Assembly (NCBI GenBank): GCA_037137535.1
Contig: JBAXKC010000012.1
Location: forward strand, 1 to 64,000
Direction of reading: 5' to 3'
From: a bacterium
GTDB taxonomy: Bacteria > Cyanobacteriota > Vampirovibrionia > Gastranaerophilales > JBAXKC01
Length of the DNA stretch: 64,000 bases
Every line of letters begins with the position of its first letter. The stretch's first letter is position 1. A program made the translations under genes and the position numbers. The notes beneath the pieces were generated by a model. That model was not told the origin of the DNA. It made no database searches and was given only the letters and a program-made list of their open reading frames with translations. Shown piece after piece: positions 5,048 through 60,749 of the stretch.

Positions 5048-5737
5048 TTATTCACCCGTTATATTTACAAAACGTTTCGTAATCAAATGAGGACGCGTAA
5101 TTGCAGAGCCAATTACTACTGCATAAGCTCCAAGCTCAAAGGCTTTTTTAACATCTTCTGGCGACCATACCCTACCTTCAAGAATTATAGGGAGTTTAAT
5201 ACTTGAAACAAGTTTTTCCAAAAGCTCAAAATCAGGCAGACCATTGTCTTTTTCAATAGTATTAGTTGTATAGCCTGATAATGTTGTTGAAATAATATCA
5301 GCACCTAATAACGCAGCTGAAAGACCTTCTTCTAAAGTTGATATATCTGCCATTACAGGCCTATTTAAATCGTTATGTATTTTATCTGTCAAATCCGCCA
5401 AATTCTCATGCAGTCGTTTTCTGGATGTTCCGTCAATAGCTATAATATCAGCATTACTTATGCTTTTTGCACTTTGAAAATCGGGTGTTATATAAACAAT
5501 ATCTTTCCAATTCTCAGGCAATGGGTCAGGTTTTGTTATTCCAATTATAGGTATATCAGTCAAAGACGTTGCAAGACTGATATCTTCAGCCCCTGCAACA
5601 CGTAATCCTGCTGCACCACCGTTTATTGCAGACTGCATCATAGCAGCCATACATTCTTTTTTGTAAAATGGTTCACCATGGCTAGCCTGAACGGACACTA
5701 TCACTTTATGTTCTATTTTTTTTATAATTTTATTCAT
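5048..5737 (-). CDS. nanE: N-acetylmannosamine-6-phosphate 2-epimerase
   Basis: IVSVQA, GGAAGLR, PIIGITK, VYITP, MADIST, TTLSGYT, IGSAITRP; start likely MNKII at 5737. Confidence 0.92.
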   Translation of the reverse strand: MNKIIKKIEHKVIVSVQASHGEPFYKKECMAAMMQSAINGGAAGLRVAGAEDISLATSLTDIPIIGITKPDPLPENWKDIVYITPDFQSAKSISNADIIAIDGTSRKRLHENLADLTDKIHNDLNRPVMADISTLEEGLSAALLGADIISTTLSGYTTNTIEKDNGLPDFELLEKLVSSIKLPIILEGRVWSPEDVKKAFELGAYAVVIGSAITRPHLITKRFVNITGE

Positions 5738-7902: not shown

Positions 7903-7941
7903 AAGCAAGAGGCAGAAAATAATAAAAAATGGTTGGTAAAA

Positions 7942-8157
7942 ATGGTTACTCTCGACAAAATTAAAGTAGGTCAAAAAGCTGCAATTTCAGTCTTTAATAA
8001 TTCCTCTGCTAAATGTTTTTCTTCAAGATTTGGCATTGAAGAAGGTCAAATTATTACCTGCATTGCAAAACCAGGGTCAATTGTTATTCAAAAAGCACTT
8101 CAAGAGATTGCCATAGGTAAAAAACTTTCACAAGAAATACTGGTTAATCTTTTATGA
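7942..8157 (+). CDS. feoA: Ferrous iron transport protein A
   Basis: TLDKIKVGQKA..RFGIEEG..IAIG pattern; overlaps feoB start; start likely MVTL at 7942. Confidence 0.85.
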   Translation: MVTLDKIKVGQKAAISVFNNSSAKCFSSRFGIEEGQIITCIAKPGSIVIQKALQEIAIGKKLSQEILVNLL

Positions 8158-53571: not shown

Positions 53572-54366
53572 TTAAATATTCTCTTGTTGATAAGCCCATG
53601 CCGAGTGATTGTGAATACTCTCAAACGCTTCACAATCAACTTCAATCCATTTAATTGATTCTATACTGCGTAACTTAGTAACAACATCTCTTAAAACATC
53701 CTCTACAAACTTAGGATTATTATAAGCATATTCAGTTACAAATTTTTCGTCTTCTCTTTTTAAGATAGGATAGACAGGACTACTTCCACAGCTTTCGATT
53801 AAATGAATAAGATCTTCAATCCATACCATAGAGCTTTCGTCATAACTTATTCTTACATTTATTACAGCTCTTTGGTTATGAGCTCCATAATCAGAAATTT
53901 CTTTACTACAAGGGCATAATGTAGTAACTGGAACACTAACACCTAAGATAAACTTATAATCTTCACCGCTTAATAATCCCTCAAAACTGCAATCGTAACC
54001 CATAGGGCTGGAAAGTTTACTTACAGGGGCATATTTATCAATAAAATACTTAAAAGAAAATTTAAGTTCAGAACTTTCTGCTTCAAGTTTTTCAGTTATT
54101 TCATTCAGACAGCCTTTTATATCAACGCCAAGAAGATTTTTTTGTCCCCATTCACAAAGTATTTCAATAAATCGGGACATATGAGTGCCTTTAAAATGAG
54201 CAGGCAAAGATACGCTCATTGTTGCTTTTGCACTTACAACCTGTTCTGAATCGTGTTTTCTTTGAATAATAAGGGGAACTTCAACGTTTTTAACCCCTAC
54301 TTTTTGTATTTCTATTCCACGATTGTCATTTAAGTTTTGAATATCTTGCAATGCTGTTTTTTTCAT
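53572..54366 (-). CDS. folE2: GTP cyclohydrolase IB
   Basis: KGTHMSRF, TLCPCSKEIS, AHNQR, KREDEK, NPKFVED, ESIHNH. Confidence 0.95.
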   Translation of the reverse strand: MKKTALQDIQNLNDNRGIEIQKVGVKNVEVPLIIQRKHDSEQVVSAKATMSVSLPAHFKGTHMSRFIEILCEWGQKNLLGVDIKGCLNEITEKLEAESSELKFSFKYFIDKYAPVSKLSSPMGYDCSFEGLLSGEDYKFILGVSVPVTTLCPCSKEISDYGAHNQRAVINVRISYDESSMVWIEDLIHLIESCGSSPVYPILKREDEKFVTEYAYNNPKFVEDVLRDVVTKLRSIESIKWIEVDCEAFESIHNHSAWAYQQENI

Positions 54367-54731
54367 TATTTTTCTTCGTTTAATAATTCATTTTGAAGTT
54401 CGCTTGAATCTTCTCTTGCAAGAGCTTTAAGAAGTTTTGTAGCTGCAACTCTTTGCACATTTGGAGGAGCTTCTTTTAAAAGTTCCATTGCTTTAATCAT
54501 AACCGGATCATTATCATACCAACGATGACCTTTTCCATAGTACCTTTTTATATTTTCATAAAGTTTATCAATAACTTCAGAAGCAACCTGTTCTTGCAGT
54601 CTTAAAACAAATTCAGATTCAGAAGACTCTTCCTCTTCTGTTGCCAGATTAAGGAGTTCAAGCGCTTCTTGAAGTGTTTCATCTCTATCATACCAGCGTC
54701 TTAAGCTTGTCATATTATCAACTCCAGACAT
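54366..54731 (-). CDS. Hypothetical protein with duplicated RWYD motif
   Basis: RRWYDRDETL..ALELL and HRWYDNDPVM..AMELL; stop overlaps folE2 start. Confidence 0.75.
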   Translation of the reverse strand: MSGVDNMTSLRRWYDRDETLQEALELLNLATEEEESSESEFVLRLQEQVASEVIDKLYENIKRYYGKGHRWYDNDPVMIKAMELLKEAPPNVQRVAATKLLKALAREDSSELQNELLNEEK

Positions 54732-54859
54732 TTAGCGAACTATTATACTAATTTTATCATAATATAATAGCAAAGTATAACTGATATTTTATTTATATAA
54801 TGCCAAAAACACCCTAATTTTTTTCAATTAGAGTGTTTTTTATTGTATTTATGAAATAA

Positions 54860-55138
54860 CTATTTTGAATTTACTAATTCTTTGAATTTTTTTCCAGCTG
54901 TAAAAGCAGGTACTGTTTTTGCAGGTATTTTAAGTTCTTTACCTGTTTGTGGGTTTCTTCCACTTCTAGCTTGTCTTTTACGTGATTCAAAAGTACCGAA
55001 ACCAACTAAAGTAACTTTTTTACCTTTAGCAACTGATTTTTCAATTGTTTCTAAGGTAGCAGCTAAAATTTCAGCAGCTTGTTTTTGAGATACTTTACTT
55101 TTTTTTGAAATTTCTTTTACTAATTCTTCTTTGTTCAT
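54860..55138 (-). CDS. hup: DNA-binding protein HU
   Basis: MNKEELV, VGFGTF, GRNPQTG, PAF.AGK. Confidence 0.96.
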   Translation of the reverse strand: MNKEELVKEISKKSKVSQKQAAEILAATLETIEKSVAKGKKVTLVGFGTFESRKRQARSGRNPQTGKELKIPAKTVPAFTAGKKFKELVNSK

Positions 55139-55297
55139 TACGTGAATCTCCCTTTAAATATAGAAACTTTTTGTCTTTATCGTAACCTTGCTTGATATTT
55201 TTTTTAGAATTCAACTAAATCAATTATAAAAAGAGTAAACATATATTCAAGTCGGTAAACAAGGCTATTTTCAAAAACCGATCGGGCAATAAAGCCT

Positions 55298-55330
55298 AAA
55301 AAACAGCCCTTCAAAATTAGGGCTGTTTTT
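55298..55330 (-). terminator. Intrinsic terminator ending the riboswitch-led two-gene unit
   Basis: AAAAAACAGCCCT-loop-AGGGCTGTTTTT. Confidence 0.8.
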
Positions 55331-55365
55331 AAAATCAATAACTAAAACAAAAAGAGTAAATTAGT

Positions 55366-56967
55366 TTATGAATAAGCAAATGGTGCGCCATTTTGAATTT
55401 CTTCAAGGATGTTGTTATACATTTTTTCTAATTTTTGAGTATCTGTAGGATTTGTTTTTTTATAACTTCTATATTCTTCTATCATCGGGTTAATTATGCT
55501 TTCTTTTTTAGCTTTAAAGTTTTTAAGCTCTGTTTCTACAAGATTATTATGAAGTTCATATTCTGTATTAGCATTTTGTTTTTTTACCTGAAAATCTTTT
55601 ATAGCTTCAACTAACTTAGTTCCTATATATGACAAACTGCTAAAGGCTGATACTGAAAGAAACAAATCTCTCGTCGCTTTATTTGGAGATATAAGCATTG
55701 CATATAAATAAGCTGTTGCCTCGTTAACAACAGAGGAAAAATAGGCTTTGTTTGCATAACCATAATAACTTGAAGGAGCTTCCGCAAAAATATTACTATC
55801 TTTTACAAAAGATTCCTGTTTTTCTTTTAATGCGTTTAAAACATTTGAAGTTAAACCTTCTACTGTTGCTTGTGTTGTTTTTTGAGTTAATTCTTTTGAT
55901 TTATTTTCAGGAGAAAGTAACTTTTCTACAAAAGCTAGCAACTCGTCTTTTTTACCTTCATTTATTAGATTATGCAATTCTGAGCGAGTTTTATCATCAA
56001 CTGTTTTTAATGCATTATTTAATGTTTGCTCTAATTTAGAGTTGTTATTTTTAAAGATTTCAATTATATGGTCAATTCCTATCTGTGGATTATTTTTCAA
56101 ACTTTGAATAAGTTTTAAAGGAGTATAATCTTTTATTTTATCAAGAGCCTGTTTCGATAATTTATTTGCACCTTTATCTATTTCACAAATATTTTTATAA
56201 GCATGTTTTGTAAGTAAAAAAGAAACTCCTAAAGTTACGGCAAGACTTGCGGCATAAAACCAATTTTTTTCATAAAAAGGTGTTTTTTCTGTTTTTGTTG
56301 TTTGGTCTTTTTGCTCCGTTCCCTTAAAGCATAAGCATTTAGTTATTTCATCCAGTTTTGCTTTTCCTTCAACAAGAATATTTTTTGTTATCTGATGTTT
56401 TCCTGAAAATGAGCGTGTTTCTACGTCAATAAGACGTTCCTGTAGGTTTTTCTGAAGATCAGCTTCTTTTTTCCTTAACCAGATGTCCTTATATCCGTCT
56501 ATAACATTTTTAGAAACAAAGCTAAATGCAGTTGCAATCATAATTACAGAAGCCGCCATAATTGATTTTTTAGAGCGATCCTTGCAAGCATAATAAATAG
56601 CGAGAACATTATCATCGTTAATTGAAATATAACGAGAAACACCCATTAAAACATTATTGGTTTCATATAGACCTGATGTTCGTTTTAAAGCATGGCTAAG
56701 CCCTGCAAGTGATGCTGATACTGCTAAACTTGCAATTGATATCGGAGCAAGGAATTTAAAAGTAGCAGTTTGTTTTTTGTTATTTTTTTCAAGATCAGGT
56801 ATTGGCTTAATACATTCAGGAATAATTATGTTTGGCTCAAAAGCAGCGCCTTTTATAAAATTATTAACAATAATGCCTTCTTTTAAGGCTTTTTTCTGTT
56901 TTTGAGTTTGATCAGTATTATAATTGCGGTATAGACCAAAGCCGTTAAGCTTAGACTGCATCAACAT
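55366..56967 (-). CDS. Hypothetical membrane-associated protein with internal two-fold repeat
   Basis: 533-aa ORF overlapping upstream gene; two similar hydrophobic plus coiled-coil modules. Confidence 0.8.
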   Translation of the reverse strand: MLMQSKLNGFGLYRNYNTDQTQKQKKALKEGIIVNNFIKGAAFEPNIIIPECIKPIPDLEKNNKKQTATFKFLAPISIASLAVSASLAGLSHALKRTSGLYETNNVLMGVSRYISINDDNVLAIYYACKDRSKKSIMAASVIMIATAFSFVSKNVIDGYKDIWLRKKEADLQKNLQERLIDVETRSFSGKHQITKNILVEGKAKLDEITKCLCFKGTEQKDQTTKTEKTPFYEKNWFYAASLAVTLGVSFLLTKHAYKNICEIDKGANKLSKQALDKIKDYTPLKLIQSLKNNPQIGIDHIIEIFKNNNSKLEQTLNNALKTVDDKTRSELHNLINEGKKDELLAFVEKLLSPENKSKELTQKTTQATVEGLTSNVLNALKEKQESFVKDSNIFAEAPSSYYGYANKAYFSSVVNEATAYLYAMLISPNKATRDLFLSVSAFSSLSYIGTKLVEAIKDFQVKKQNANTEYELHNNLVETELKNFKAKKESIINPMIEEYRSYKKTNPTDTQKLEKMYNNILEEIQNGAPFAYS

Positions 56968-57721
56968 TCAATTGCTCCTTTTGTTTATTTTTAGCTTTCT
57001 TTCTTTTTTTCTCCGCAAGTTTTTTTAATCGCTTAAATAAATTATTAAAAAGTTCTCCTGCTTTATTTAGTTTTTCAAAAGCATGTTTTGTAATTTGTTT
57101 TGCTTTTTGTGCAATAAATTGACCTAAATTCTCTGCGGCATGTTTTAAAAAACTTAATTTTTTAATAACCTCAAGACCCTTTGTTAAAAATTCTTTTAAT
57201 ATTTTTTGCTGTTCTCCCAAGAATGCTGATATTGCATTCAAAGCACTCGTCAATTTTGCCTGAGTGTCAGTAATAACTTGAGAAGCCTTTGAAAGAAGAT
57301 TTGTTACTATTGTTTGTATTTCTTTCATTGTTGAAGCAACAGCATTTTTAATATTATTTAAAGGCTGCATAAAGCTTTTAATTGACTGAAGAACTGAATT
57401 AGCTGCGGCTAAATATTTTGCGGTATTTGATATTTCAAGTTTATTTTTAGTTTGATCAGCCAAAAGGCTTTGATTAAAAAACTCTTTTCGCATTTCTGCA
57501 TTTTTTCTGGTTGAAAGTATGGACATCCAAATCCCATAACCTTCATTCCAGCTCATTTGTCCTTTTTTAGCAACACCGCCGCCACCTCCACCGCCTGAGC
57601 AGGCAGGGCAAGAACCAAAAGGCATTCCATGCGGACATTCACTTGATGATATTTTAGGCTGCGAAGCTGTTCTCATACTTACGCTTTGAAACGTAGGCGG
57701 GGATATATTTCCGACTCTCAT
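56951..57721 (-). CDS. Hypothetical protein with CPHGxxxxxCPxC and poly-Gly
   Basis: 256-aa ORF directly after riboswitch terminator. Confidence 0.8.
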   Translation of the reverse strand: MRVGNISPPTFQSVSMRTASQPKISSSECPHGMPFGSCPACSGGGGGGGVAKKGQMSWNEGYGIWMSILSTRKNAEMRKEFFNQSLLADQTKNKLEISNTAKYLAAANSVLQSIKSFMQPLNNIKNAVASTMKEIQTIVTNLLSKASQVITDTQAKLTSALNAISAFLGEQQKILKEFLTKGLEVIKKLSFLKHAAENLGQFIAQKAKQITKHAFEKLNKAGELFNNLFKRLKKLAEKKRKKAKNKQKEQLNVDAV

Positions 57722-57736
57722 GACTTATTCCAATAC

Positions 57737-57767
57737 AAAAAAATCTAACAGGAGTACTGCTAGATTT
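57737..57767 (-). terminator. Leader terminator (riboswitch expression platform)
   Basis: Minus strand AAATCTAGCAG-TACTC-CTGTTAGATTT followed by further T residues, 15 nt before ATG. Confidence 0.8.
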
Positions 57768-57839
57768 CGAAATATTTACATGCAAAAAATCATAGTAAAA
57801 CTGATTCTTTACGTTCCTTAATTTCGAAGTACTAGCAAA

Positions 57840-57918
57840 GGTAAACTTTAAGCATTCCGACTTTAACGGCTGCGGTTCAGTCGGGTATTTTCAACCCGTT
57901 TCCTTAAAGTAAACTGTA
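57840..57918 (-). ncRNA. Cobalamin riboswitch, compact class-II-like aptamer
   Basis: Minus strand CTTTAAG GAAA CGGGT-TGAAAAT-ACCCG A CTG-AACCG-CAG CCG-TTAAAGT-CGG AATG CTTAAAG, matching the P3-J3/4-P4-P5-P6-J6/3 four-way junction. Confidence 0.8.
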
Positions 57919-57924
57919 ATAAAT

Positions 57925-57952
57925 ATTCTAAAGGTAAAAAAATTTATGTCAA
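57925..57952 (-). promoter_or_regulatory. Sigma70-type promoter of riboswitch leader
   Basis: Minus strand TTGACA-16 nt-TAGAAT just upstream of aptamer. Confidence 0.7.
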
Positions 57953-57958
57953 GTTTTG

Positions 57959-58885
57959 TTACACATAAAACTTACCCTGCCACGAATCCCTTCTTTGTAA
58001 TTCAGCATCTATCATATTTAATAGTCTGAATTTTTCTCCTAAAAATTTAGGAGCTACCAATATTTTTTTTAAACCGTTTCCTGCCATCCTGTGAATAGTT
58101 GTTGTGGGTGGTAAAACCTCTAAGAAATTACAGACAATATCAACATATTCAGAATCCGACATTAGAGTTATTTCTTCTTTGTTATACATATCTTCTATCT
58201 TTGTGCCGTTTAAAACGCATAACAGATGTATTTTAACGCCATCAACCTTCAAATCAGCAAGAACTTTAGCTGTTTCAATTATATCGTCCCCAGTTTCACC
58301 AGGTAAGCCTATAATGACATGGGCGCATATGTTTATATTTTTATTTTTTGTCAATTCAACGGCTTTTATAAAATCTTCACCTGAATGTCCTCTGTTTATA
58401 AGGTTTAAAGTTTTATCATGAATTGATTGGAGGCCGTATTCTATCCATACATGTTTTTTAAAAGCATAATCCGCAATTAAATCAATTTTTTCTTCATCAA
58501 CACAGTCAGGTCTTGTTCCTATGGACATTCCCACTATGTCGGGATGATAAAACGCATTATCATATATGTTTTTAAGTTTTTCTACTGGTGCGTAAGTATT
58601 TGAGTATGCTTGAAAATAAGCAATAAATTTTTGAGCTTTAAATCTTTCTTTTTGTTTCTCAATACCTATAATTAACTGTTCATTTACGCTAATAAGGTTA
58701 CTGTGTGCTTGAGAAAACGAACCGCTGTCATCACAAAAAATACAGCCGCCCGTCAGTTTTGAGCCGTCACGATTTGGACAGCTAAAACCGGCATCAATTG
58801 TTACCTTATATACTTTACAATTAAAAGTATCCTCAAGATGCCGGCTGAATAAATTATATCTTTTGTCTTTAAATGGTGAATTCAT
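57959..58885 (-). CDS. Radical SAM protein, TIGR01212/YhcC-like
   Basis: GFSCPNRDG...GGCIFC, YFQAYSNTY, GTRPDC, INRGH, GVKIH. Confidence 0.9.
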   Translation of the reverse strand: MNSPFKDKRYNLFSRHLEDTFNCKVYKVTIDAGFSCPNRDGSKLTGGCIFCDDSGSFSQAHSNLISVNEQLIIGIEKQKERFKAQKFIAYFQAYSNTYAPVEKLKNIYDNAFYHPDIVGMSIGTRPDCVDEEKIDLIADYAFKKHVWIEYGLQSIHDKTLNLINRGHSGEDFIKAVELTKNKNINICAHVIIGLPGETGDDIIETAKVLADLKVDGVKIHLLCVLNGTKIEDMYNKEEITLMSDSEYVDIVCNFLEVLPPTTTIHRMAGNGLKKILVAPKFLGEKFRLLNMIDAELQRRDSWQGKFYV

Positions 58886-59141: not shown

Positions 59142-60749
59142 TATCTTTATTTCAAAAAAAAATCCCTCACTGAAAAGTGAGGGAATAAGTTTAAGGAATT
59201 TATATTAAGCGTAGAGTAAGTAACTTTCTTTCATTTTTTTCATTGCGTCTTTTTCTTCTTCAACATTGTTTTTGAAGTTTTTAAGAACGTTTTCGATGAA
59301 TGATTTAACTGTTGGTGCGCCTTGTGCTTCAGCTGTTTTTGCTGCTGCTTCTGTTGCGTTTATGTTCATTCCGAATACATTACCATAGGTTTTGTTTAAA
59401 AATTCATTTGTATCTAAAGTTTGTTGACCTTCAACATTTTTGCCTTTGTAATCTACGTTGAATGTTCCAGCTAAAATATTATTGTTTACATCAAGTTCGT
59501 TTTTCTTGCTGAATGAGTTAAGGTCGATTGAATTGATTCCAAGGTCAGCTGCTGATGCAATTTTTGATTGACCATCTTTTGTTGCAAGTGTTTGAAGAGC
59601 GTTTAATTCTTTACCGTCAATAATACCATCTTTATTTGTATCGAATTGAAGAAGTTCATCCCAACCATTTTGAGCGCCTAGGAATTCTTCTTTTCCACTG
59701 AATTTACCATCTTTATTTTTATCGTTGATGAAATCGAATTTCCAACCATCTGCTTTGAAACCGATAGGGTCTGTTCTTTCTATTTGTGTATCTGGTGCTT
59801 TTTTTTGTAATTCAACACAAAGATCAGAAAATACTTGAGTTGATTCTGTATCGTGGCCGTTTGGTACTTGTACGTTTCCATTGTTATCAACTTTAATTGC
59901 GTTTGAGAAGTTAGCGCCGATATATTTTTTGAATTGATCTTCTGTCATATTTTTTGCTTGTGGGCTGGCTAAGAACTGTTGAAGAGCGGCTACTTCAGGA
60001 TTAGCTGATGTATTAACATCTCCTGTGAATGCTGCTTGCTTAGCTTGTTGAGCTTCTGCTGTTTTAATTTGTGTTTCTAAACCTTGAATATCTGTACCAA
60101 GTGTTGCTGCTTCTTGGGAAAGGTTTTGAATTGTTAAGCCAAGTGCGTTTGCTGTTTGAACTTTTGAATCTAAGATTGATGTATCTATTCCGATTCCGGC
60201 TAATTCTGCTTTTAATGCATCATTGAATTTAATTGACGGATCGTTTTGGGTTTTTGTTGTTACTTTTTTTACTGCTTCTTGTACTTGATTTTCTTGTTTT
60301 GCTGTTAGTGCTTTTGATAAATCATCTGTTTCGCTGATAAGTTTTGTAAGTTCGTCTTGTTTTGCTTGCATTTCGTTTTCTACTACTTCTTTTTGTGCTT
60401 TTTTTGCTGCAACTTGCTCTTTAAGATTATCAGTAGCTGCATTACCTGTTTTTGTTGTGAAGTTTACATCATCTGTATTTGCTGCTACGTTTGTATTATT
60501 GAATAATAATTCTAACCCGTTATTGTTGTTTACTGTTCCATTGTTTTGTAAATTTAAGGAGAAGTTATTGATTTTATTGAATAAGTCTTGGTTTTGAATT
60601 CCGTATACCATCTTTTTATCTCCTTACCTTTAGATCATCAACTGCTTATGTATATATAAAAACATTCCATTATATAAAATTGCGTGACTTGTTATATAAT
60701 TAGTATATACTGTTACATTTCTTAATGTGTTCGCCTGACCACACAAAAA
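59142..60749 (-). repeat. 1.6-kb direct repeat copy B
   Basis: Near-identical to 46546-48139 with a net 15-nt in-frame insertion. Confidence 0.95.
59205..60611 (-). CDS. Coiled-coil protein with DxNxDG Ca-binding-like loops, copy B
   Basis: Near-identical to 46610-48001. Confidence 0.85.
   Translation of the reverse strand: MVYGIQNQDLFNKINNFSLNLQNNGTVNNNNGLELLFNNTNVAANTDDVNFTTKTGNAATDNLKEQVAAKKAQKEVVENEMQAKQDELTKLISETDDLSKALTAKQENQVQEAVKKVTTKTQNDPSIKFNDALKAELAGIGIDTSILDSKVQTANALGLTIQNLSQEAATLGTDIQGLETQIKTAEAQQAKQAAFTGDVNTSANPEVAALQQFLASPQAKNMTEDQFKKYIGANFSNAIKVDNNGNVQVPNGHDTESTQVFSDLCVELQKKAPDTQIERTDPIGFKADGWKFDFINDKNKDGKFSGKEEFLGAQNGWDELLQFDTNKDGIIDGKELNALQTLATKDGQSKIASAADLGINSIDLNSFSKKNELDVNNNILAGTFNVDYKGKNVEGQQTLDTNEFLNKTYGNVFGMNINATEAAAKTAEAQGAPTVKSFIENVLKNFKNNVEEEKDAMKKMKESYLLYA

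Follow-up and report, generated by a model that had tools for sequence, protein, structure and literature searches.

An AdoCbl-II riboswitch precedes a two-gene operon that may encode a new type of vitamin B12 uptake system in Gastranaerophilales

The window analyzed here is a stretch of 64,000 nucleotides from contig JBAXKC010000012.1 of a bacterium of the order Gastranaerophilales (class Vampirovibrionia; GenBank assembly GCA_037137535.1). On its minus strand lies an operon of two open reading frames, ORF1 and ORF2, that is preceded by a riboswitch of the class II cobalamin (AdoCbl-II) family. From genome context we infer that the products of this B12-repressed operon take up corrinoids (vitamin B12) and are proteins of a new type, a reading whose chances of being right or wrong we judge to be evenly balanced, and that, for the B12 importer still missing from these bacteria, ORF1-ORF2 is the best candidate. 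The uptake reading is favored because the sole B12-sensing switch of the genome controls exactly these two genes and an importer is otherwise unaccounted for.

Analysis of the leader with cmscan showed that the aptamer upstream of ORF1 matches the Rfam model RF01689 over its full length (model positions 1-81 of 81), with a score of 39.4 bits compared with a gathering score of 36.5 bits (E 7.5e-6 in the search of the window and 8.2e-8 in that of the genome). This agrees with the class II assignment made in the original prediction, an account of this DNA drawn from its letters, and the Rfam alignment contains the four-way junction features described there: the GGAAA of the junction, a hairpin whose loop reads UGAAAAU, a pair of short hairpins, and, ahead of the 3' strand of P1, AAUG. 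The window copy retains every core position that does not vary among 18 aptamers of relatives. In the whole genome (81 contigs totaling 2.95 Mb, with a completeness rating of 100% and contamination of 2%), the aptamer before ORF1 is the one match to RF01689, and there was no match to the classical Cobalamin family RF00174; the two-gene operon is the sole riboswitch target found in the genome.

The genes that follow this aptamer class in other members of the order indicate what it senses. In a sample of 41 same-order genomes (this one and 40 relatives), RF01689 matches at E up to 0.001 are present in 36, and matches above cut-off are present in 30. When the aptamers of relatives are not located before the ORF1-ORF2 pair, Pfam names the downstream genes as MetE (L005), NrdD (L007, L016, L020, and L021), TonB-dependent receptors (L009 and L017), and OprB-family porins. 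In one relative (G008), a btuC match lies on the same strand ∼2 kb downstream of a riboswitch-controlled TonB-receptor gene, with btuF 0.8 kb further. Because metE, nrdD, and TonB-receptor genes follow the same class in relatives, we conclude that these RNAs act, as judged from the genes beside them, as B12 sensors in this lineage, and that a variant aptamer with another ligand, which the original prediction had offered as an alternative, is unlikely. Class II aptamers are said to prefer methyl- or aquocobalamin.

The association of this leader with the pair is conserved across the order. Homologs of ORF1 were found in 28 of the 40 relatives and homologs of ORF2 in 30, and the two are always adjacent. 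In 23 of these 28 genomes, the ORF1 match is preceded on the same strand, at a distance within about 100-430 nt, by an Rfam aptamer match. A covariance model (R1) was built here from 18 Rfam-detected aptamers, the window copy among them. Applied without filters to the upstream regions of the other five genomes, R1 added an aptamer in G004, G007, and G012 (38-41 bits), bringing the link between aptamer and pair to 26 of 28 same-order genomes. The high R1 score of the window aptamer (84.8 bits) is expected, as this copy is one of the sequences from which R1 was built.

A larger set of loci gave the same picture. A single ORF2 protein used as query for related loci returned nothing; an ORF2 alignment, used as the query in its place against one genome per species, returned 543 tblastn-confirmed stretches. 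The counts for further loci rest on the best 80 of these 543 (L022-L101), with Candidatus Gastranaerophilales, Candidatus Melainabacteria, and Vampirovibrio among the names in their titles. R1 had exactly one match just upstream of ORF1, on the gene strand, in 76 of these 80 loci and none elsewhere in the 665 kb searched. Three of the loci without a match (L032, L039, and L049) have little or no DNA upstream of the pair, and ORF1 was not found in two of them (L039 and L049); in the fourth (L041), the upstream sequence is present and gave no match. The 80 loci and the 40 relatives were drawn from overlapping genome collections, so these two counts are not independent. The original prediction had proposed that orthologs in relatives be examined for the same leader, and it is present in both samples.

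Across the 76 aptamers, 89.4% of the cells at paired positions are paired, and 9 of the 15 pairs contain double changes. The alignment from which these values derive was fitted to the model and leans somewhat toward the structure; in it, 165 double-change cells were counted compared with 60 in shuffles, and the covariation score was 0.380 compared with 0.161 in shuffles and at most 0.139 when partners were slid. Neither observed value was reached in 500 shuffles.

Two observations concern this aptamer class in other parts of the order. In family f6, whose genomes do not contain the pair, AdoCbl-II riboswitches precede OprB-family porin genes (L010:1750-3096, plus strand, and L018:1-1116, minus strand), and these porins are a possible outer-membrane B12 channel where TonB-dependent receptors are not present. 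In genus g20, a single contig (G025:C62) bears three AdoCbl-II aptamers on the minus strand (2609-2688, 5106-5185, and 7925-8004; L108 and L109), one of which precedes metE, and the ORF1-ORF2 pair is found on a different contig with no detectable aptamer upstream.

The B12 economy of the host provides the second line of evidence. NrdJ, the class II, adenosylcobalamin-dependent enzyme (NF006417, 1170 bits compared with a cut-off of 961), is the sole ribonucleotide reductase found in the genome, and the presence of NrdJ together with two CobA/BtuR-type corrinoid adenosyltransferases shows that the host uses and tailors B12. Searches of the genome did not find NrdD; the B12 synthesis markers CobS and CbiB; a BtuC/FecCD permease or BtuF-type binding protein; a TonB-dependent receptor barrel or BacA-type ATP-binding cassette (ABC) protein; or MetE, QueG, or a B12-binding domain over cut-off. 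Two CbiM-(N)-CbiQ-CbiO operons of the cobalt/nickel-type energy-coupling factor (ECF) kind are present (G000:C5:92341-94784, which is L103:3341-5784, and G000:C10:16622-18809, which is L104:3622-5809). Neither has a cobalamin riboswitch match, and because both CbiQ genes are in dedicated CbiM-Q-O operons, no shared ECF module is seen. As a user of B12 with no known synthesis or import route among the families searched (models for BtuM and CbrT were not included), the host must have an unrecognized importer.

The distribution of the pair across the 41 genomes is complementary to that of known B12 routes. None of CobS, CbiB, strong BtuC, or BtuF was found in 27 of the 29 genomes that hold the pair; no pair-holder (0 of 29) has CobS or CbiB, and BtuC plus BtuF occur only in G008 and G015, both from genus g9. 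At least one of these four markers is present in 11 of the 12 genomes without the pair. For these counts, BtuC was accepted only at FecCD scores of at least 160 bits, weaker FecCD matches (21-28 bits, in G003, G009, G011, G018, G019, and G037) were set aside as likely other permeases, and several of the assemblies are incomplete. The contrast between pair and markers recurs within four families (f3, f5, f8, and f10), so that the switch from one to the other is not one inherited event. NrdJ matches are present in 39 of the 41 genomes. In the twelfth genome without the pair (G026, same order, 87% complete), no riboswitch, NrdJ, BtuC, BtuF, CobS, or CbiB was found, and this organism may be a B12-independent member of the order.

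Based on the order-wide link between leader and pair, and on the presence of the pair where CobS, CbiB, BtuC, and BtuF were not found, the suggestion in the original prediction of an undescribed corrinoid acquisition or B12-responsive system is favored, with transport as the putative activity. The accompanying suggestion of cobalt acquisition is disfavored, as import of cobalt makes little sense in pair-bearing genomes in which neither CobS nor CbiB was found.

Neither of the two proteins has a relative above threshold in Pfam, NCBIfam, or PADLOC, or a significant one among PDB sequence profiles. In an alignment of ORF1 homologs, the invariant residues are C29, P30, H31, G32, C38, P39, and C41, followed by a run of Gly, and E170 is also invariant. 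The remainder of ORF1 consists of long amphipathic helices, and the window copy has no hydrophobic segment. An AlphaFold 2 (AF2) model of ORF1 (mean pLDDT 69.3, pTM 0.30) places helices at residues 58-255 and is too uncertain for a fold assignment. No Pfam or NCBIfam model reaches its cut-off with ORF1, although its helical part has a weak, sub-threshold likeness to Mce-type and apolipophorin-type amphipathic helices. Comparison with PDB sequence profiles returned designed or apolipophorin-like helices alone (best E 0.002, nothing significant), and PADLOC returned one sub-threshold match, to LmuB (E 0.005). DnaJ-type zinc fingers bind zinc through repeated CxxCxGxG motifs; ORF1 has one C-P-x-C-x-G-x-G, preceded by C-P-H-G, and no zinc-finger family is among its Pfam matches at E up to 0.1.

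ORF2, which overlaps ORF1 by 17 nt and has AAGGAG upstream of its ATG, contains four hydrophobic segments rich in Ala, Ser, and Gly (within residues 67-98, 132-159, 234-260, and 435-453). Two highly conserved helices of ∼76 residues, with similar motifs, continue the second and fourth of these segments, and a C-terminal N-G-(P/A)-P-(F/Y)-x-Y-x motif is nearly invariant. The AF2 model of ORF2, built with 45 sequences, is all-alpha (pLDDT 59.8, pTM 0.41) and, like that of ORF1, is too uncertain for a fold to be assigned. ORF2 has no PADLOC match, no Pfam or NCBIfam model over cut-off, and no match to PDB sequence profiles at E up to 1, and none of the 45 ORF2 family members has a Pfam match at E up to 0.001. 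A search of the ESM Atlas returned just unnamed Melainabacteria clusters (scores up to 0.88), with a structural TM value never above 0.32. These results are in line with the earlier reading that neither protein resembles BtuBFCD, ECF, MetE, or Nrd proteins, and they place neither one in a known B12 family or in any curated family. In genus g9, the open-frame lengths had raised the suspicion that ORF2 was split or frameshifted; this was ruled out by the finding of a single 541-amino acid reading frame.

When a collection of 5.8 billion proteins was searched, 95 relatives of ORF2 were found, all of them annotated as "hypothetical protein" at most and none with a Pfam domain; an ORF2 profile found 236 representatives among 1.84 billion proteins, in what looks like a closed family plus fragments. 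By these sequence comparisons, ORF1 and ORF2 are closed families confined to Gastranaerophilales/"Melainabacteria," and the operon consists of two lineage-restricted protein families without functionally known relatives, present in several hundred species-level genomes. The sequencing runs listed as containing the locus are freshwater or lake-water metagenomes (DNA), with no RNA run among them.

A third conserved gene accompanies the pair in part of the order. ORF3 (about 150-200 amino acids, with a ...FLAGIYRK.QVPDAFGPL... motif) is located within about 10-40 nt 3' of ORF2 in 48 of the 79 loci compared (from L022-L101); one example is L110:2751-3305 on the plus strand. Of the 40 relatives, 18 have ORF3, whereas the genome analyzed here gave no match. 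ORF3 has no Pfam family, no PADLOC match, and no PDB sequence-profile match below E 0.5. Another conserved gene without a Pfam family, recognized by the N-terminal sequence ...SQARFLGLTARK..., is present at L028:6106-7107 (plus strand) and in 24 further loci; it is mostly the second gene downstream of ORF2, and in 21 loci it follows ORF3.

The elements of the leader and operon are collected in Table 1. The original prediction had described a promoter, an antiterminator complementary to a segment overlapping the 5' arm of a terminator, a terminator 15 nt before the start codon, two overlapping hypothetical genes, and a closing terminator, and each of these is present in the sequence. The promoter has 11 of 12 consensus matches and is the top one of seven promoter-like sites in 55100..58200, where such sites are not enriched (7 seen compared with 12.2 expected from shuffles). 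The aptamer begins two bases 3' of its -10 element. From the end of the T-run to the ATG of ORF1 (57721) is exactly 15 nt, and no second strong promoter was found between the terminator and this start codon. The leader terminator (stem 57768..57740, T-run 57743..57737) has a folding energy of -13.1 kcal/mol when folded alone (z -6.0), and six terminator-like sites were seen compared with 1.8 expected by chance. The closing terminator was found by folding and was missed by the terminator consensus scan.

Table 1. Elements of the riboswitch leader and the ORF1-ORF2 operon in the window
Feature	Position	Strand	Basis
Sigma-70-type promoter: TTGACA (57952..57947), 16-nt spacer, TAGAAT (57930..57925)	57925..57952	-	Consensus scan
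AdoCbl-II (class II cobalamin) riboswitch aptamer	57842..57923	-	Rfam RF01689 covariance model
Proposed antiterminator, 5' strand: TGCTAG (57837..57832) and TTCGAAAT (57828..57821)	57821..57837	-	Complementarity read from the sequence
Proposed antiterminator, 3' strand: ATTTCGAA (57773..57766) and CTAGCA (57763..57758)	57758..57773	-	Complementarity, folds
Intrinsic terminator of the expression platform: 12-pair stem, 5-nt loop, 7-T run	57737..57768	-	Consensus scan and folding
ORF1, 256 amino acids	56951..57721	-	ORF translation; homologs conserved
ORF2, 533 amino acids	55366..56967	-	ORF translation; homologs conserved
Terminator ending the two-gene operon: hairpin and U-run	about 55297..55330	-	Folding: -17.1 kcal/mol, z -3.9

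CTAGCA is common to the 3' strand of the proposed antiterminator and the 5' arm of the terminator, and ACTTCGAAAT in the antiterminator 5' strand resembles the ACTTCG(A/G)GTCA hairpin loop found 3' of the aptamer in relatives. Computed folds of the window leader contain a helix between UUCGAAAU and AUUUCGAA, and thermodynamic folding indicates that this helix and the terminator can coexist; switching must therefore rest on co-transcriptional UGCUAG/CUAGCA pairing and a B12-dependent block of it. Of the 76 leaders of relatives, at least 43 have a stable hairpin plus T-run immediately ahead of the start codon, and in 40 of these, Shine-Dalgarno-like purines are present in the 3' arm. The figure of 43 is a minimum, as some of the chosen start codons probably lie too far upstream. 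In the window copy, the terminator is separate from the weak ribosome-binding site. The predicted design of the leader is the usual OFF type, in which the bound ligand would lead to termination and occlusion of the ribosome site.

In class II cobalamin riboswitches, a kissing loop between L5 and L13 links the aptamer to the expression platform. Relatives have a hairpin after the aptamer with a loop beginning CG-N-G, and this loop is complementary to L5, with one bulge, in all of the CTGCC-type (11 of 11) and CAGCC-type (3 of 3) cases. A 5-nt complement of L5, with one bulge allowed, is present in 15 of the 76 leaders compared with 38 of 532 mismatched L5-leader controls. These comparisons make L5-L13 kissing plausible for part of the aptamer family. 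The window L5 (AACC) differs from those of all 76 relatives, and its own leader contains no complement of the L5 sequence GAACC, in keeping with the earlier remark that its kissing partner was not obvious.

In the proposed mechanism of control, bound cobalamin would allow the terminator to form and transcription would stop 15 nt before ORF1; in many relatives, the same hairpin would also bury the ribosome-binding site. When B12 is scarce, the antiterminator would capture the 5' arm of the terminator, and the operon would be read through. ORF2 would be a four-segment membrane protein that forms the path across the membrane, probably as an oligomer, and ORF1, translationally coupled to ORF2 and predicted to be soluble or peripheral, would be its partner on the cytoplasmic face. 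The Cys3-His knuckle of ORF1 could be a structural zinc knuckle, or it could ligate the cobalt of the corrin as BtuM does via cysteine. The imported corrinoid would be adenosylated by the BtuR-type enzymes and become the cofactor for NrdJ. A more specific proposal, to which we give somewhat less than an even chance, is that ORF1 and ORF2, joined in some lineages of the order by ORF3, represent an importer class that is new, confined to Vampirovibrionia, and unrelated to ABC, ECF, and TonB-dependent systems. In this proposal, an oligomeric four-helix ORF2 path would act with a cytoplasmic Cys3-His knuckle protein that captures the corrinoid via its cobalt, and uptake would be driven by this binding, not by ATP hydrolysis.

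Several results weigh against a role in uptake. Transport and B12 binding by the pair are inferred, and ORF2 appears from its sequence to be unlike any known carrier. Only four membrane segments are predicted in ORF2, the fourth of them weak, and its model is of low confidence; VIA-align comparison of this model with 48,161 chains returned generic helical bundles (best Z 9.2, within the chance range for helical models). In the genome, no outer-membrane B12 route and no TonB-dependent receptor were found, so part of the uptake path would still be missing. Two CbiM-type systems of undecided metal specificity are present, and BtuM/CbrT-type carriers were not searched for by family model. The complementary pattern looks stronger than it is, because related genomes do not count as independent cases, and as genus g9 (G008 and G015) also has a riboswitch-controlled TonB-receptor/BtuC locus, the pair is not simply a replacement for BtuCDF. 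In genus g20 (G025 and G035), R1 detected no aptamer ahead of the pair. In the window copy, no L5 partner by which ligand binding could be passed to the expression platform was found in the leader.

Among the alternatives, the one that survives best is a B12-starvation response that moves no corrinoids. The operon would then provide a bypass that does without B12, or help the cell to cope with stalled DNA synthesis (e.g. by scavenging of deoxynucleosides or other nutrients, or envelope remodeling), and would be on when NrdJ is without its cofactor. Substitutes that work without B12 are also among the genes repressed by B12 riboswitches, and metE and nrdD follow this class in relatives. However, a bypass would be useful whatever the B12 supply, yet the pair was not found in 11 genomes with biosynthesis or BtuCF markers and is present in 27 genomes without them, and it coexists with a riboswitch-controlled nrdD in G006, G027, G031, and G033. 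The weak resemblance of the ORF1 helices to Mce-type and apolipophorin-type helices, as well as the failure to recover a transporter-like fold for the ORF2 model, fit such a response, and with no NrdD found, loss of B12 would be severe enough to make a dedicated response plausible. It would leave the B12 import route of the host unexplained, and we consider it unlikely, while giving it real weight.

It is also possible, but improbable in our view, that the role of the pair lies in corrinoid handling other than transport across the inner membrane. ORF1 would bind the corrinoid, the pair would act in membrane-anchored capture, storage, decyanation/trafficking, or remodeling, and import would proceed via an unrecognized carrier. 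No separate importer candidate was found among the families searched in the genome, and a distribution complementary to that of BtuCF and biosynthesis is what an acquisition route, not an accessory, would produce. The invariant Cys/His motif of ORF1 is consistent with such handling, as cobalt-sulfur ligation is used by BtuM (PMC6072759) and by MMACHC/MMADHC (PMC12501144). Coexistence of the pair with BtuCF in genus g9, and the third conserved soluble protein that follows the pair in 48 of 79 loci, are likewise in its favor. Finally, we regard it as very improbable that the leader is a decayed or chance match, or a variant aptamer for another ligand, with the genes expressed regardless of B12: the Rfam score is just 2.9 bits above cut-off, no kissing partner was found for L5, and the terminator can coexist with the UUCGAAAU helix, but every core position invariant in the 18 aptamers of relatives is kept, the aptamer precedes the same genes in 26 of 28 genomes and 76 of 80 loci, classical B12 genes of this order are regulated by the class, and 15 nt without a second strong promoter separate the terminator from the ATG.

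The flanks of the ORF1-ORF2 pair are not conserved among relatives. In the window, the region downstream of the operon (53572..55138, minus strand) encodes a FolE2 GTP cyclohydrolase, a 121-amino acid protein without a family, and HU, the gene for which has its own promoter-like site (55250..55223). Upstream of the operon (57959..58885, minus strand) is an MnmL/YtqA radical S-adenosylmethionine tRNA-modification enzyme. Further upstream (59205..60611, minus strand), a 468-amino acid protein rich in Asn, Gln, and Thr has an extended region resembling a coiled coil and, near residues 321-339, an EF-hand-like motif that scores below threshold; it reached no Pfam cut-off and had no NCBIfam match.

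The B12 uptake route of most B12-auxotrophic bacteria is still an open question. In the order studied here, which consists of gut and freshwater bacteria, DNA synthesis via NrdJ requires B12, no known pathway of B12 synthesis or import is seen in most members, and one B12-sensing switch leads to two uncharacterized proteins. If these proteins do import B12, they would represent a new transporter architecture, provide a metagenome marker for B12 dependence, and offer insight into competition for corrinoids in the gut. If they do not, the B12 regulon still gains a new and widely conserved operon with a role that needs explanation. No description of the ORF1-ORF2 operon was found in literature on Melainabacteria, Gastranaerophilales, or Vampirovibrionia and cobalamin, a search that had supplementary regulon tables outside its scope.

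When compared with known systems, the RNA is an ordinary further member of the RF01689 family. The window copy shares with other RF01689 riboswitches the full-length match, the four-way-junction core with its GGAAA junction and UGAAAAU-type loop, the CCGCA...GU...AG.C.GAA core, the position in a 5' leader, and an OFF-type terminator platform. It differs from the usual members in that the genes it controls are not btu, cob/cbi, metE, or nrd, and from its relatives in the AACC of L5, for which no L13 partner was found in the leader.

Genes for BtuCDF, an ABC importer of type II that transports B12, and for BtuB are commonly under B12 riboswitch control. The pair is like them in being riboswitch-controlled, as is the G008 locus, and in its proposed role in corrinoid acquisition by auxotrophs, and in this order its distribution and that of BtuCDF are nearly mutually exclusive. 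In contrast to BtuCDF, ORF1 and ORF2 have no FecCD, Peripla_BP_2, or ABC ATPase domain (Pfam and NCBIfam, E up to 0.1), and the pair consists of two proteins, one with four membrane segments, without a recognizable energy-coupling module. BtuCDF is predicted in only about half of Cbl-auxotrophic bacteria, with other inner-membrane B12 transporters still to be identified (PMC6072759). The same study describes BtuM as a B12 carrier that was predicted from genome context in organisms without BtuCDF: a single membrane protein of ∼22 kDa with an S-component fold, found mostly in Proteobacteria, that has no ATPase and has an invariant cobalt-ligating Cys (PMC6072759). ORF1 also has invariant Cys and His residues, but here the motif is on a separate, apparently non-membrane protein, and no sequence relation to BtuM was detected. 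S-component carriers such as BtuM and CbrT have about six helices; ORF2 has four hydrophobic segments, no invariant Cys or His, and no S-component features in its low-confidence model.

ORF2 resembles MotA/ExbB/ZorA-type proteins in having four membrane segments and long helices. A ZorA-like or stator-like identity was rejected, as ORF2 residues 298-528 matched ZorA_3 with just 14.2 bits (cut-off 250, E 0.015), PADLOC gave no match, and there is no MotB/ExbD-like partner with a membrane aspartate, ORF1 being without a membrane segment. Nor did the genome search find a TonB-dependent receptor that an ExbB-type system could energize. Neither ORF1 nor ORF2 could be placed in a known B12 transport family; in its proposed function, the operon most resembles riboswitch-controlled btuB-btuFCD operons and carriers predicted from genome context, such as BtuM.

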